From contig VMGX01000002.1 of NCBI GenBank assembly GCA_007376805.1, forward strand, positions 47,116-111,115: a DNA stretch of 64,000 nt, read 5' to 3'. Below the pieces are notes generated by a model, which was given only the letters and a program-made list of their open reading frames with translations, was not told where the DNA came from and made no database searches. A program made the position numbers and the translations under genes. This DNA comes from Parcubacteria group bacterium Athens0714_16. Its GTDB lineage: Bacteria; Patescibacteriota; Minisyncoccia; Phycocordibacterales; 21-14-all-36-13. Shown here one piece after another: positions 51,859 to 62,205 of this stretch. The number at the start of each line of letters is the position of its first letter. Position 1 is the first letter of the stretch.

Positions 51859-52755
51859 ATGCGTGATTACCCATTAGAAAAAGTTAGAAACATAGGAATT
51901 ATTGCACACATAGACGCGGGGAAAACAACAGTTTCCGAGCGCGTTCTTTTTTATACAGGAGTTTCTCACAAAATAGGTGAAGTCCACGAAGGAAAGGCGG
52001 TTATGGATTGGATGGAACAGGAAAGAGAAAGAGGAATTACCATTACATCCGCTGCAACGACTTGTTTTTGGACTCCAACATATCAAACAATGCAGATAAA
52101 CGCAGATAAAAAATCGCAGATTGACGCAGATGAAACAAAAAAAGAATTTGAACACAGAATAAATATTATAGATACACCAGGACACGTGGACTTTACAGTT
52201 GAGGTTGAGAGATCTCTGAAGGTTCTTGACGGTGGTGTTGTTGTTTTTGACGGAGTCGCAGGAGTTGAACCACAGTCAGAAACAGTTTGGAGACAGGCAG
52301 ATAAATATCATGTTCCAAGAATTTGTTTTATAAACAAACTCGATAGAACAGGAGGAAATTTTGAAAGGTCATACAAAACAATTTTAGATAGATTAACAAA
52401 AAATGCAGTTAGAATGCAGATACCGATCGGTGAAGAAGAAAAACACATGGGAGTTGTTGATCTTTTGAAAATGAAAGCATTTTATTTTGAAGGAGATTTA
52501 GGGAGCACAATAAGAGAAGCTGAAATCCCAGACGAATTAAAGGCTGATGCACAGAAATACAGAAATGAACTTGTAGAAAAAATTGTTGAGAACGACGAAG
52601 AAATGATGACCAAATATCTTGGCGGTGAAGAGATTGGAGTTGATATTTTGAAAAAACTTTTAAGAAAATCAGTAATTGCTGGGTTGGTTGTTCCTGTTTT
52701 TACTGGTTCCGCATTAAAAAATAAAGGAGTTCAACTTGGATGTTCCGCCAATTAA
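51859..52755 (+). CDS. fusA: elongation factor G, N-terminal (G domain) ORF
   Basis: [14 protein letters not shown] and NKLD GTPase motifs. Ends ...[14 protein letters not shown] after a frame break. Contains a 27-aa insertion before [11 protein letters not shown]. Confidence 0.85.
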
Positions 52756-54007
52756 AGGAATAGACCCAAACACTGACGGAGAAATAGAAAGAAAATCAGA
52801 TGATAACGAGCCGTTTGCTGCGCTTGCTTTTAAATTACAAACGGACCCATTCGTTGGTCAGTTAACATATTTTAGAGTTTATTCAGGAACACTTGAATCT
52901 GGTTCTTATGTGTACAATTCTACAACAGGAGAAAAAGAAAGAATCGGAAGAATTTTAAGAATGCATGCAAACCTAAGAGAAGATGTAAAAAAAGTTTATG
53001 CAGGAGAAATTGCAGCAGCTGTTGGTCTTAAAAACACAAGAACATCAGATACTCTTTGTGACGAAGTCCATCCAATAATTCTTGAAAGAATTGTGTTCCC
53101 AGAACCGGTTGTATCTTTGAGAATTGAACCAAAAACAAAAGCAGACCAAGAAAAAATGGGTATTGCACTTAAAAAACTTTCTGACGAAGATCCAACATTC
53201 AGAATTAAATCAGATCAAGAAACACTGGAGACAATTATTTCTGGTATGGGAGAATTACACCTCGATATTATTGTGGACAGAATGAAAAGAGAATTTAATG
53301 TTGAAGCAAATATAGGCAAACCACAGGTTGCATACAGAGAAACAATAACAGGCGAGGCAGAAGCAGAATATAAATACATAAGACAAACAGGTGGTCGCGG
53401 ACAATACGGTCACGTAAAAATTAGAGTCAAACCAATGCCGTTAGAAGAAGAAAAAAATAAAAAACTTGCAAGAAATATAAAGAGGTCTGAGGGACTTGAA
53501 TTTATAAATAATATTAAAGGGGGCGTTATTCCACAAGAATATATTCCAGCAGTTGAAAAAGGGGTTCGTGAAGCGATGGACAGAGGTATTCAGGCTGGTT
53601 ATAAAATTGTAAATGTGTCAGTGGATTTGTTTGACGGTTCATTCCACGACGTTGACTCTTCTGAAATTGCATTCAAAATTGCAGCATCACAAGCATTTCA
53701 AGATGCAACAAAAAGAGCAAAACCAGTTATTCTTGAGCCTGTTATGAAATTAGAAGTTGTTACACCAGATAAATTTATGGGAGACATAACAGGAAATCTT
53801 GCTTCAAAGAGAGGACAAATTGAAGGCTCTGAAGAAAGAATTGGTTTGAAAGTAATTCATGCGAAAGTTCCTCTTTCAGAAATGTTTGGATATACGACAT
53901 CATTACGTTCAATGACAGAAGGCCGTGCATCTTCAACAATGGAATTTGATCATTATGCGATTGTACCGGAGAATGTTGCTAAAGAAATTATAGAAGCGAG
54001 AAAGTAG
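52736..54007 (+). CDS. fusA: elongation factor G, domains II-V ORF
   Basis: (L)DVPPIKG...PFAALAFK...ISGMGELHL...[11 protein letters not shown]. In the +1 frame relative to the upstream ORF. TTG at 52736 lies 6 nt after AAGGAG. Confidence 0.85.
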
Positions 54008-57339: not shown

Positions 57340-58679
57340 GGAGAGGGGAGTGAAATAGACCTGAAACCATATGTCTACAAGGAGTCGGAGCAGAACTCTA
57401 CTGAGTTCTTTAAATATGTTTTTTAAAATTTATAATTTATGGATTTTAAAATTAGAGAATTGAGTAGAGTTTCTGCGACGGCGTGCCTATTGAAGAATGA
57501 GCCAACGAGTTTACATGTACTGCTTGACTAAGTCCCGAAAGGACGGAGTCTAAGGGAAACCGAGTGTTAAAAGCGCGTTCCGCTTTATTGCGGGTGTAGT
57601 ATATGTAAGACCCGAAGCCAGGTGAGCTACCCATGATCAGGGTGAACTTTGTCGAAAGACAAAGGGAGGCCCGAACCGTTTAGCCGTGCAAAACTATCGG
57701 ATGAATTGTGGGTAGGAGTGAAAAGCTAATCGAACTTGGTAATAGCTGGTTCTCTCCGAAATAGCTTTAGGGCTAGCGTTTAGTTTATCTTTTGGGGGTA
57801 GAGCACTGGATGGTCTGGATAGGAGGCAACTTCACTAGACCAATCAAACTCCGAATACCAGAAGCCACTACTAAACAGTCAGACTACGGGGGCTAAGCTC
57901 CGTCGGTCAAAAGGGAAACAGCCCAGATCTCAAGTTAAGGTCCCTAAATTTACATTAAGTGCAAATAAGGAGGTGGAATTTCTCCGACAGCGAGGAGGTT
58001 GGCTTAGAAGCAGCCATCCTTTAAAGAAAGCGTAACAGCTCACTCGTTAAGAGATTTTGCGCCACAAATAATCGGGGCTAAATGTGATACCGAAACTGAG
58101 GATGTCATCACTTTATTGTGATGGCGTGGTAGGAGAGCATTCCGTTCTACTGTGAAGCCAAAGGGGTGACCCATGGTGGAGTGTACGGAAGAGATAATGT
58201 TGGCACGAGTAACCACAATTCCACTAAGAAAGTGGAACGCCGAAAGATCAAGGTTTCCTTGGCAATGTAAATCATCCAAGGGTTAGTCGGTCCTAAGGTT
58301 ATGACGAAAGTCGGAGCCGATGGACACACGGTTAATATTCCGTGACTTTCATTTATTTCGATGGGGTGACGAAGTTTAGTATGTTTGGCGCATTATTGGA
58401 TTTGCGTCTACTTTGTGAGGAAGGTGCTTAGGCAAATCCGGGCACCTGACTTTAATGTCAATTCCAAGCGAGGCGGAGAACCTGAGATTCGTCAAAGGGA
58501 ATCAAACAAAGCAAGCTTCCAAGAAAAACCTCTAAGGTTAAATAAATGAAAACCGTACCGAAAACCGACACAGGTGATCAGGTCGAGAAGACTAAGGCGA
58601 ATGAGTGAGTGTTCCCCAAGGAACTCGGCAAAAAAGCAGCCGTAACTTTGGAATAAGGCTTTCCAGCTCCAATTTTGGG

Positions 58680-58950
58680 AGTAAAATTAAATTATGAATT
58701 ATGTTTATCTTATTCAAAATGATTTTGATGGAGAAATATATATTGGACAAACTTCTGATATAAAAAGAAGGTTGGCTGAACATAATAATAAATGTCAAAA
58801 AGTTTACCACTAAAAAACGGTAAGTGGATAATTATTTATCTTGAAATATTCAGAAATAAAAAAGATGCACAAGAAAGAGAAAATAAATTAAAACAACATG
58901 GTGGTGGTAAAAAAGAATTACTTAAGCGACTAAGATATAGTTTGCTTGAG
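58680..58950 (+). other. 271-nt insertion in the terminal loop of a helix-63-equivalent hairpin
   Basis: Closed by the 17-bp helix CCAGCTCCAATTTTGGG (58663-58679) with CCCAAAATTGGAGCTGG (58951-58967). Lacks the AUAUAGUC group I signature. Confidence 0.6.
58694..58935 (+). pseudogene. frameshifted GIY-YIG nuclease gene inside the 23S insertion
   Basis: Frame 1 reads MNYVYLIQNDFDGEIYIGQTSDIKRRLAEHNNK (GIY-YIG N-half, stop at 58813). The C-half KWIIIYLEIFRNKKDAQERENKLKQ continues in another frame from about 58792, with no stop until 59028 in rRNA sequence. The shift lies near an A-run. Confidence 0.65.
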
Positions 58951-59124
58951 CCCAAAATTGGAGCTGGACGCAGCGAAAGTACCCCTGGCGACTGTTTACC
59001 AAAAACACAGCTCCCTGCGAACTCGTAAGAGGATGTATAGGGGGTGACGCCTGACCAATGCCAGAAGGTTAAACATGAGGGGTCCAAGAAGTTTTACTTT
59101 TTGGGCTGGATTATGTAAGCCCTG

Positions 59125-59159
<35 letters not shown>

Positions 59160-59611
59160 TCTCGGTTTAATTTTTAAATTGAATCGAGAAAGACTAGGAC
59201 TGTTATAATAAAAAATTGGTAACAAAAGATTGCTGCCTATTTCACGTAAAGTGAAATGTCTATAAAATTTGACCATATGCTGGGAAACCCGCGATGTATC
59301 CTTAAGTACTCGTTTAATTTTTTAAACAGTAACAAACTTTAAGGTGATGCGGAAAATCAGCAGGAAAGTTTGAATTCTTTTTAATTAAATCTAGAATTCA
59401 AAATCCTCAGAGACTAAAAGTCAGACTAAGTTGTCTACAAAAACAATTTAGAAAATATAGTCCGAACTTTGTGGCGACACAGAGAGTGAGACAGAAATGT
59501 TCTTACCTTGTATCTGCGTTCATCTGCGCCTGCCCCGTAGCTAGAGCATAGCTCTATGGTACTGGGGTATAATTTGCGTAGATCTGCGTTTGTTACAAAG
59601 TAACAAAGTTG
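59160..59611 (+). mobile_element. group I intron (ORF-less) at the E. coli 1917-equivalent position
   Basis: Interrupts CCTAAGGT|...G|AGCGTAATTCC. The 5' exon ends in U and the intron ends in G. Contains AGACTAAAAGTC and GAAAATATAGTCC core-like motifs. Confidence 0.75.
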
Positions 59612-60181: not shown

Positions 60182-60503
60182 TAAAGTAAATTTACAAATT
60201 TAAATCGGGGTGCGACGTGAGAGATTGCGTAGCCTGGAATCAAAAACATATTTGTAGGAGAATATGTTCAGATTAAAAATATTGGCTTATAACGGTGGAC
60301 TCCATCATAAAAATTTTTATTATGGACAATACCGTGGGAAGTCTTCGTTTTCAAAAACGAATGACCCCGTAGAGACTGATGCGAAAGCAGAGAGTATTTC
60401 ATAAACGAAATGCTAATACGCCAACTCCTAACCACAATAAATTAATTGTGGAAGGAAGAAGATATAGTCCGATCCTTCTGGTAACAGAAGAAAAATGACA
60501 TTG
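60182..60503 (+). mobile_element. group I intron (ORF-less) at the E. coli ~2500-equivalent position
   Basis: Interrupts GGCACCT|...G|CGATGTCGG. Contains GAAGATATAGTCC. Shares blocks with the next intron. Confidence 0.75.
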
Positions 60504-60659
60504 CGATGTCGGCTCGACTTATCCTGGGACTGGAGAAGGCCCCAAGGGTTTGGCTGTTCGCCAATTAAAAAGTCACGTGAGCTGGGTTCAGACCGTCGTG
60601 AGACAGGTTGGTCTCCTATCTGTTGCAGGCGTCGATTTTTGAGGAGATTTGCTTCTAGT

Positions 60660-61486
60660 AAGTAATTGCTACTTCTCATAGTAATATGGGATGACAATTT
60701 GGCTAATAACGGTGAAATCTTCATAGGTTATCTGGCAGTGGAAAAACAATTAGCGCGGTCCGTTAATTGTGATAAAATTACTTGAGGACCAGATAATTTT
60801 TAAGACAATACCGTGGGAAGTCGATCTAAAATTAATTTAGCATATATCGCTGGTTTTCTTGATGGAGATGGAAGTTTAATGCTCCAAATAAAGAAAAGAA
60901 GTGATAACAAAAGAGGGATTCGTTTTATGGCGACAATATGTTTCTATCAAGATAGTCGTCACGATGAACCTTTATATTGGATAAGAAAAGAATTAAACAT
61001 AGGGTATGTTTCAAAAAGAAAAGATGGAATTACTGAATTGAGGATCAATGGATTTGAGAGAATTGAAGAAATTCTTAAAAATCTTATTCCTTATATAAAA
61101 TTCAAAAAGATACAAGCAAAAGCATTATATGATTGTTGTAAAATTTTACAAAAACCAATGAATGCTTTAAAAGAAAGTGATTTCAGAAAACTTGTAGATT
61201 TGATTCTTACAATTCAAAAAGAAAACTATGTTTCAAAGAAAAAGAAAGACAAAGAAGAATTGCTAAAACTATTAGATTTGACCCCGTAACGACTTGTTTT
61301 GTTCAATCTAATTTGAACAAACGGACTTGTATAATTTCGGAAGGTTCTGAAATATTTTAGGACAGATTTATACTTGTAATACGCCGACACCCTAATCAAC
61401 ACAAGGTTGGTGGGTGAAGATATAGTCTACACTCCTAGAAATAGGGGATAAATTCTAAATCAATTAAAAAGATTAAGAAATATGTG
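60660..61486 (+). mobile_element. group I intron with LAGLIDADG ORF in the sarcin-ricin loop region
   Basis: Interrupts CTAGT|...G|ACGAGAGGACC. Contains GAAGATATAGTCT. The ORF is inserted between the blocks CAATACCGTGGGAAGTC and TGACCCCGTA. Confidence 0.75.
60813..61289 (+). CDS. single-motif LAGLIDADG homing endonuclease (I-CreI-like)
   Basis: 158 aa. LAYIAGFLDGDGSLMLQIKKR motif and overall I-CreI-like layout. GTG start within a conserved intron block. Confidence 0.85.
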   Translation: MGSRSKINLAYIAGFLDGDGSLMLQIKKRSDNKRGIRFMATICFYQDSRHDEPLYWIRKELNIGYVSKRKDGITELRINGFERIEEILKNLIPYIKFKKIQAKALYDCCKILQKPMNALKESDFRKLVDLILTIQKENYVSKKKKDKEELLKLLDLTP

Positions 61487-61565
61487 ACGAGAGGACCGAA
61501 GTGAACTGACCTCTGGTGTACCTGCTGTCGTGCCAACGGCACCGCAGGGTAGCTATGTCGGGAAA

Positions 61566-61598
<33 letters not shown>

Positions 61599-61874
61599 AA
61601 CTCCAAGATAAGAAATCATTTAAGATTCCTGAGAGATGATCAGGTTGATAGGCCTTAGGTGTAAGCACAGCAATGTGTTCAGCCGAGAGGTACTAATTTA
61701 ATCAAAATTACTTCCTGTTGGGAGCTATGTGAGCTACAATATTTTATTTTTGTGGATTCTTTATTCCGCTAGGTGAAAAATACTTTATCTGTTTTTATAT
61801 ACTTAACTATTATTTTTTTTCTGAACTAAATTTTTTGAATTTAGTGCTTTTTTGTTCTTTTTAAATATTTAATT

Positions 61875-61983
61875 GGCGGTATAGTTTAATCTGCTCTGGG
61901 CAGACTGACCAGTGGTTTTTGGTTAGGGTTAAAACGTCGCCCTTTTAAGGCGAAGAGTATTGGTTCGAGTCCGATTATCGTCA
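61875..61983 (+). tRNA. tRNA-Lys (anticodon UUU) with a 36-nt D-loop insertion
   Basis: Acceptor GGCGGTA/TATCGTC, D-stem GTTT/AAAC, anticodon arm TCGCC-CTTTTAA-GGCGA, T-arm ATTGG-TTCGAGT-CCGAT. The insert at 61891-61926 lies between AAT and GGTTA of the D-loop. Confidence 0.6.
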
Positions 61984-61989
61984 CAAAAG

Positions 61990-62064
61990 GCGGGGGTAGT
62001 TCAGTTGGTTAGAACATTCGTTTCGCAAAACGAAAGGTCGGTGGTTCGAGTCCACCCCTCTGCT
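61990..62064 (+). tRNA. tRNA-Ala-like (G3:U70; CGC-containing 8-nt anticodon loop)
   Basis: Acceptor GCGGGGG/CCTCTGC with G3:U70, D-arm GTTC-AGTTGGTTA-GAAC, anticodon stem TTCGT/ACGAA enclosing TTCGCAAA (8 nt), variable AGGTC, T-arm GGTGG-TTCGAGT-CCACC. Confidence 0.6.
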
Positions 62065-62205
62065 CGAAGTTTTTTTTGAGTTCTTTTATATGGGCCGTTG
62101 AATTAACAGACCGAGGTCTTTAGTGACTGGCGTAACAGCGCGGGCTCAACGGAACGGGAGAGCTTGGTTGGGGTAATCGGTAAATCACCCACGGTCTATC
62201 ATTTT

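Follow-up and report, generated by a model that had tools for sequence, protein, structure and literature searches.

Insertions in the ribosomal RNA (rRNA) genes of the Candidate Phyla Radiation (CPR) were catalogued by Tsurumaki, Sato, Saito and Kanai (J Bacteriol 2024, PMC11270868), who reported 14 frequent insertion sites among 348 CPR 23S genes. LAGLIDADG_1 was the predominant domain in the insertions at 23S positions 1917, 1931, 1952, 2593, 2604 and 2657 (23IS6-8 and 23IS12-14), and group I introns at 23IS14, among other sites, had been previously unreported in other bacteria (PMC11270868). One enzyme, I-ShaI of the CPR bacterium Ca. Shapirobacteria (23S position 1931), was shown biochemically to dimerise and to cut its own insertion site (PMC11270868). 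The same study noted that homing endonucleases may also act as maturases, suggested an ancient acquisition by a CPR ancestor and described CPR genomes as usually having a single rRNA operon (PMC11270868). The DNA analyzed here, referred to as the window, is a stretch of 64,000 nucleotides (nt) from Parcubacteria group bacterium Athens0714_16 (assembly GCA_007376805.1, contig VMGX01000002.1, positions 47,116 to 111,115 of the forward strand). Its 23S rRNA gene contains an 827-nt insertion with an open reading frame (ORF) of 158 amino acids (aa). This element is very probably a mobile group I intron, one of the class known from 23S position 2656/2657 (23IS14) in Patescibacteria/CPR.

The window contains one copy of the 23S rRNA gene, on the plus strand, from 56802 to approximately 61700. 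Numbering was taken from the Escherichia coli 23S rRNA, in which AGTACGAGAGGACC begins at position 2654, by BLASTN alignment. The gene aligned to this reference as colinear exon blocks, and the 827-nt insertion was located at 60660-61486 (+). The junction sequence reads ...TTGCTTCTAGT(60659)^AAGTAATTGC...ATATGTG(61486)^ACGAGAGGACCGAAGTG(61487...), where ^ marks an exon-intron boundary. CTAGT aligned with E. coli 2652-2656 and window position 61487 with E. coli 2657. On this alignment the insertion point is between the U2656 and A2657 equivalents, in the bulged-G motif of the sarcin-ricin loop. The 5' exon ends in CTTCTAGT (60652..60659, +), with T60659 as the U2656 equivalent and final exon base by both BLASTN and sequence. 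The 3' exon starts with ACGAGAGGACCGAA (61487..61500, +), in which A61487 is the A2657 equivalent by BLASTN and which holds the GAGA tetraloop of the sarcin-ricin loop. An initial annotation of this DNA had placed an intron after the U2656 equivalent in the sarcin-ricin loop. BLASTN agreed with this placement, and the limits given there, 60660-61486, were the exact intron limits with correct exon sequences.

The position numbered 2657 in PMC11270868 is the same site as U2656^A2657. All features of the 23IS14 class were found in the window: a position of ~2657, a Patescibacteria host, a group-I-like RNA and a LAGLIDADG_1 domain. The literature already covers this class of element, the site and the range of hosts, and public databases contain near-identical copies; the element is not new. 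Novelty of the site, as implied by the initial annotation, did not hold, since 23IS14 is listed as a frequent CPR site (PMC11270868). The accompanying remark that the site is missing from classical lists was right for organelle and eukaryote lists. Literature on group I introns under 'L2656' or '2656' numbering yielded nothing relevant beyond PMC11270868, which uses '2657'.

The identity of the inserted RNA was assessed by comparison with homologues. The sample was 80 genomic loci encoding relatives of the ORF, from which introns were cut out by their exon junctions and the ORF interior was removed. The resulting 72 ORF-deleted 'mini-introns' were aligned by MAFFT without structural information. 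Across the 72 homologues 95.9% of sequence-pair cells in 12 helices were canonical, with 85 pair types beyond the first, compared to 36-50% canonical in a slid control in which the 3' partners were moved by 1-3 columns. Two-sided changes were abundant in P2, P3, P5, P8, P9.0 and P9. P4, P6 and P7 were invariant across the alignment, which is expected because they form the catalytic core. Group I chemistry requires that a U·G pair mark the 5' splice site and that the intron end in G. The splice-site U·G was retained in 69 of 70 sequences, and the terminal omega G, at 61486 (+) in the window, was shared by all 73 extracted introns. The covariation strongly supports a functional group I ribozyme and is decisive where database matching is weak; judged by the aligned homologues the element is a group I intron. 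The group I rules cited in the initial annotation, a U before the intron and a G at its end, were borne out and were joined by a covariation-supported P1-P9 core.

The secondary structure, all on the plus strand, begins with P1 (TAGTAA/TTGCTA, 60656-61/60666-71), which is closed by a GUAA tetraloop and was 97% canonical compared to 2-34% when slid. The splice-site wobble pair is U60659·G60668 within this helix. P2 is a hairpin (TCTCAT/ATGGGA, 60674-79/60686-91), 96% canonical with 24 extra pair types and up to six pair types per position. P3 (TTGGC/GCCGA, 60699-703/61383-87) was 95% canonical and its outer pairs alternated between TA, GC, CG and AT. The P4-P5 domain spans 60710..60813. Within it P4 (CGGTG/TACCG, 60710-14/60809-13) was 100% canonical and nearly invariant, and an AA/AA internal loop, J4/5, separates it from P5 (60717-21/60802-06). 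P5 was 86% canonical, the first pair showing an isosteric switch between A·C and G·U and the second a switch between TA and CG. A variable P5 extension includes GGTCC/GGACC (60757-61/60786-90). P6 (GGG-AA-GTC/GACCCC, 60815-17 and 60820-22/61280-85) was invariant in 72 of 72 sequences except for one TA pair type.

P7 (GACT/AGTC, 61291-94/61424-27) was also invariant in 72 of 72 sequences, and its 5' strand is within the R-like element CCGTAACGACTTG. Between P7 and the 3' strand of P3 a constrained minimum free energy fold gave two extra hairpins (61296-61377), P7.1 (~61296-61320) and P7.2 (~61323-61377). Hairpins of differing sequence occupied this interval in most homologues and one hairpin only was present in some. 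Extra hairpins P7.1 and P7.2 in this position are a subgroup IA trait. Assignment of the intron to subgroup IA is at most probable from its two P7-P3' hairpins, as some homologues have one. P8 is a hairpin (CACCC...GGGTG, 61388-61416), 89% canonical with 11 extra pair types. J8/7 (AAGATAT, 61417-61423) and the 3' strand of P7 that follows it were conserved in all homologues, and their alignment to RF00028, the group I model of Rfam, had a high posterior probability. The J8/7-like motif GAAGATATAGTC noted in the initial annotation is present, at 61416-61427, one base away from the position of 61417-61428 given there. P9.0 (AC/GT, 61429-30/61484-85) was 100% canonical, with alternation of GU/GC/AU and of CG/UA. 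P9 is a hairpin with a GAAA loop (61432-47), 100% canonical with 17 extra pair types. It is followed by P9.1, a lineage-specific extra hairpin (~61453-79).

An initial hand-built core, with P4 as ACGGTG/CCCCGT, the ORF in L5 and a second GGACTT at 61323-28 as P7, was ruled out by the 72-sequence alignment. The second GACT copy was missing from several homologues. Every homologue has invariant blocks next to the ORF, AATACCGTGGGAAGTC upstream of it and GACCCCGTAACGACT downstream. Because these blocks flank the ORF, the first model was replaced by one with P4 as CGGTG/TACCG and P6 as GGGAAGTC/GACCCC.

The ORF (60813..61289, +) encodes the 158-aa LAGLIDADG homing endonuclease, has a GTG start and a TAA stop, and fills L6. 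Its start codon begins with the last base of the 3' strand of P4, at the junction with P6, and its stop codon is in J6/7. Codons 2-4 (G2-S3-R4) form the 5' strand of P6 and the final codons, L-T-P, form the 3' strand. The protein termini (GSRS... and ...LTP) are conserved in the family because the same bases form P6. No earlier start is possible in the window copy because of an in-frame TAA at 60801-60803.

A single Pfam LAGLIDADG_1 domain was identified at residues 12-101 (45.2 bits against a cut-off of 23.1). In a phmmer search of PDB sequences the protein matched I-CvuI (3e-13), the native I-MsoI chain (3.4e-12) and I-CreI (about 5e-9). From an alignment of 30 family sequences AlphaFold gave a model with a mean pLDDT of 91 and the alpha-beta-beta-alpha-beta-beta-alpha fold of the I-CreI type. 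The predicted model was superimposed by Foldseek on I-CvuI and I-CreI with TM-scores of 0.84-0.86 and a root-mean-square deviation of 2.1-2.5 Å. The GFLDGDGS motif containing D19, together with Q46 and K98, was invariant in the 30 family members. These residues, of which D19 is the catalytic Asp, align to D20, Q47 and K98 of I-CreI. The ratio of nonsynonymous to synonymous substitution rates (dN/dS) was 0.06-0.19 in ten pairwise comparisons, indicating that the ORF is maintained by purifying selection on the protein. By its domain match and predicted fold the protein is an I-CreI-like single-motif LAGLIDADG homing endonuclease. This is how it was described in the initial annotation, and Pfam, phmmer and Foldseek agree on it. 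Homodimer formation and DNA cleavage would follow by analogy with the characterized members of the family.

The joined exons were examined for dyad symmetry. The top score within ±18 bp fell exactly at the insertion site, with 6 of 11 positions matching overall. The inner 12 bp, TCTAGT^ACGAGA, matched at five of six positions around a palindromic GTAC. The insertion site of I-CreI is 3 bp off the dyad, and because of this offset the exact DNA target of the window enzyme stays a prediction.

A homologous ORF lay between TAGT and ACGAGAGGACC in all of the 72 loci, out of 80, that had both junctions in the fetched DNA, and nearly all of these loci carry Patescibacteria labels. At E<=1e-5 the protein search gave 2,845 clusters, of which the best 120 were 63-96% identical, ~159 aa in length and almost all from metagenomes or Patescibacteria metagenome-assembled genomes (MAGs). 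The nearest relatives of the ORF and of the flanking rRNA were labelled Patescibacteria, Parcubacteria, Paceibacteria, Moranbacteria, Saccharibacteria and similar. One MAG contig already deposited, JBBTPZ010000030.1 (locus L002), matches the flanking exons without a difference and the ORF at 96% identity. The ORF was intact in 72 of 72 homologues in the codon analysis; a further locus, L064, has an N-terminally truncated ORF. Among the neighboring genes in the window are those for PNPase, the ATPase of a type IV pilus, ComEC, RecJ, RNase Y, a CCA-adding enzyme and elongation factor G (EF-G), so the DNA is from a bacterial chromosome and not an organelle; this gene content is consistent with a small bacterial genome.

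Nine loci labelled Saccharibacteria or Saccharimonadales (L017, L019, L020, L023, L029, L032, L034, L062 and L067) have the L2656 intron with an intact endonuclease and carry a distinct flanking rRNA sequence type. The ORF of the Saccharimonadia-type copies starts with an ATG six codons upstream, inside the 3' strand of P5. Almost no introns or homing endonucleases have been reported in Saccharibacteria rRNA genes (PMC11270868). Four further intron contigs (L046, L053, L058 and L076) were binned as Proteobacteria, Elusimicrobiota or Nanoarchaeota and have Patescibacteria-like flanking 23S sequences. These are probably mis-binned contigs and not cases of cross-phylum spread, judging by the flanking rRNA.

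Splicing, cleavage activity and the exact target are predicted from established group I and LAGLIDADG biology. The 23S gene would be transcribed with the 827-nt intron dividing the bulged-G motif of the sarcin-ricin loop. The intron RNA would fold into P1-P9 with the two extra P7-P3' hairpins and the splice-site U·G, and would excise itself by two guanosine-initiated transesterifications, possibly with assistance from a protein. U2656 would be religated to A2657, giving the joined exons CTTCTAGT-ACGAGAGG and restoring the loop needed by EF-G and EF-Tu. Because the 827-nt insert would destroy this loop and CPR bacteria usually have a single rRNA operon, splicing must be efficient and essentially complete for translation. 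The 158-aa enzyme, as a homodimer by analogy, would cut intron-less ribosomal DNA (rDNA) near ...TCTAGT^ACGAGA... and leave 4-nt 3' overhangs. Repair from an intron-bearing allele would then copy the intron into the cut rDNA (homing).

Several observations weigh against this account of a self-splicing, homing intron. The match to RF00028 was partial (61270-61448, 27.5 bits, E=7.4e-5 in an 871-nt search) and did not reach the gathering score of 50, and the alignment was confident in the J8/7-P7-P9 region of the 3' part alone. The group I model named in the initial annotation was therefore matched below threshold, while the fold as a group I core P1-P9 stood. The weak alignment is attributed to the 477-nt ORF in L6 and the IA-type extra hairpins, which break the model alignment. 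With a sub-threshold match confined to the 3' part, the Rfam scan was dropped as the sole group I test and the comparative test was built. No canonical P10 was seen when L1 was read for a complement to the 3' exon, and none is possible because L1 is a 4-nt GNRA tetraloop. A CUUCUC/GAGAGG pairing was considered as P10 and rejected, being on the wrong side of P1 and not conserved. No Shine-Dalgarno sequence was found before the GTG start. GAGGACC was considered as one and rejected, since ~25 nt separate it from the start codon and it forms the P5-extension helix with GGTCC. The dyad symmetry of the joined exons fits a homodimer target and is a modest signal. Host-exon identity and endonuclease identity were correlated with a Spearman rho of 0.34 and no clear-cut outliers. 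Such a weak correlation fits a mixture of vertical descent and transfer, and does not by itself separate homing from vertical descent.

The alternative that survives best, unlikely as a full account, is that the intron splices and its LAGLIDADG protein acts mainly as a maturase, or as both maturase and endonuclease, with mostly vertical inheritance. An ORF that fills all of L6 and has its start and stop codons inside the core implies that protein and ribozyme are tightly co-constrained, and the conserved termini fit with this. The uniformity of the intact ORFs, with the copy at L064 as the truncated one, is greater than a cycle of gain, decay and loss predicts. Possible maturase activity of these homing endonucleases and their ancient acquisition were both raised in PMC11270868. 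However, the active-site positions D19, Q46 and K98 are invariant, and a pure maturase would not need them. The weak correlation between host-exon and endonuclease divergence suggests some horizontal movement, and nuclease activity has been shown for I-ShaI, which is of the same type and also from CPR. The maturase account is possible as a partial truth.

A very unlikely reading is that the intron is more than a selfish passenger. Splicing, perhaps aided by the encoded protein, may be an obligatory late checkpoint that holds new 50S subunits GTPase-incompetent until the rRNA folds. In more practical terms the enzyme may be a meganuclease of natural origin directed at the most universally conserved rDNA sequence known. 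The checkpoint can be considered because the intron splits the one rRNA element required to activate the translational GTPases and because its ORF is interlocked with the catalytic core. If true, it would explain the intact copies across very divergent Patescibacteria.

It is most improbable that the true splice junction is one base further 3', after A2657. The intron and the 3' exon both begin with A (...TAGT A AGTAA...GTG A CGAG), so a one-base shift gives the same ligated product, and the site is labelled '2657' in PMC11270868. However, that number derives from an E. coli alignment and not from mapped splice sites, and only the U2656^A2657 placement gives a splice-site U·G together with a terminal G, both of which are conserved in homologues. 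That the insertion is unspliced, either removed without ligation to leave a fragmented 23S rRNA or retained as an expansion segment, is almost certainly wrong: RNase III-processed intervening sequences are known in bacterial 23S genes, CPR included (PMC11270868), and a probable one is present in the same gene at 58660-58958, but the break at 60660-61486 is inside the bulged-G motif of the sarcin-ricin loop and not at a helix tip, has no long closing inverted repeat for RNase III, and contains the covariation-supported group I core with its U·G and terminal G.

Besides the L2656 intron the 23S gene contains three other insertions. An insertion of ~300 nt (58660-58958, with ORF fragments at 58695-58814 and 58792-59028) is located between the E. 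coli 1704 and 1736 equivalents. It is closed by a perfect 17-bp inverted repeat, CCAGCTCCAATTTTGGG at 58663-58679 and CCCAAAATTGGAGCTGG at 58951-58967. It encodes a GIY-YIG nuclease gene with a frameshift near 58790, the N-terminal half being MNYVYLIQNDFDGEIYIGQTSDIKRRLAEHN and the C-terminal half being in another frame. From its sequence this looks like a non-intron intervening sequence of the GIY-YIG-ORF kind in PMC11270868. Two ORF-less group I introns were also found, one of 452 nt at the L1931 equivalent (59160-59611, Rfam 62 bits) and one of 322 nt at the L2500 equivalent (60182-60503, Rfam 47.9 bits). Each is preceded by a U and has a terminal G. The three introns and the GIY-YIG insertion total ~1.9 kb of the 4.9-kb gene.

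The EF-G gene (fusA, 51859-54007) is divided between an ORF at 51859-52755 and an overlapping one at 52736-54007. They meet out of frame at ...KNKGVQ / LDVPPIKG..., where a conserved 13-aa segment (LLDAVVDYLPSP) of other EF-Gs is missing. The split may reflect an assembly error, a pseudogene or something more unusual. No link was found between the split fusA and the sarcin-ricin loop intron, although EF-G docks on this loop.

The region following the 23S gene (61700-62200) gave no 5S rRNA hit, even at E<=1, and has tRNA-like genes instead. The first (61875-61982) is 108 nt long; its acceptor stem (GGCGGTA/TATCGTC) is good, its anticodon loop resembles that of Lys(UUU) and its T arm is normal. 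It has ~30 extra nt in the D-arm region, was not called by ARAGORN and matched Rfam at model positions 8-63 only (37 bits). The second (61990-62065) has an 8-nt anticodon loop (UUCGCAAA) and was called by ARAGORN as 'tRNA-??? anticodon cgca'. It resembles tRNA-Cys(GCA) with one extra C after U33, which may be a sequencing error or a genuine expanded loop.

With its class, site and host range published, the intron has little discovery value. What is gained here is an explicit, covariation-supported structure of a site-2656 intron, with the ORF in L6, start and stop codons in the core and IA-like hairpins. Almost all life shares the predicted target, ...TCTAGT^ACGAGAGGACC..., which is of potential interest to meganuclease engineers.

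Among known systems, the rRNA group I introns of non-CPR bacteria (for example Coxiella, Simkania, Thermotoga and cyanobacteria) are similarly located in conserved stretches of 23S domains IV and V and often contain LAGLIDADG genes (PMC3984707). None of these is reported at the sarcin-ricin loop. I-CreI, I-MsoI and I-CvuI are, like the window enzyme, single-motif proteins of ~160 aa from group I introns in large subunit rRNA, and share its fold (TM 0.81-0.86) at a low sequence identity of 25-31%. They differ in coming from green-algal chloroplasts and the 23S site L2593, compared to a bacterial host and site 2656 for the window, and hence in their DNA target. The I-CreI ORF is likewise located in L6 of its intron. 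I-ShaI is, like the window enzyme, a CPR single-domain LAGLIDADG_1 protein of a 23S group I intron. It is from another site (1931) and another clade, and is closer to I-CeuI (PMC11270868). The 23S gene of the window itself has other insertions listed in PMC11270868, namely the one at position 1931 and the GIY-YIG-bearing non-intron insertion. In that study 23IS14 is a catalogue entry, with no secondary structure and no mention of the sarcin-ricin loop, and the enzyme tested was from another site. The closest match remains the CPR 23IS14 introns, which have the same host clade, the same position, a group-I-like RNA and a single-domain LAGLIDADG_1 ORF of ~160-180 aa, and from which the window intron differs in nothing essential.

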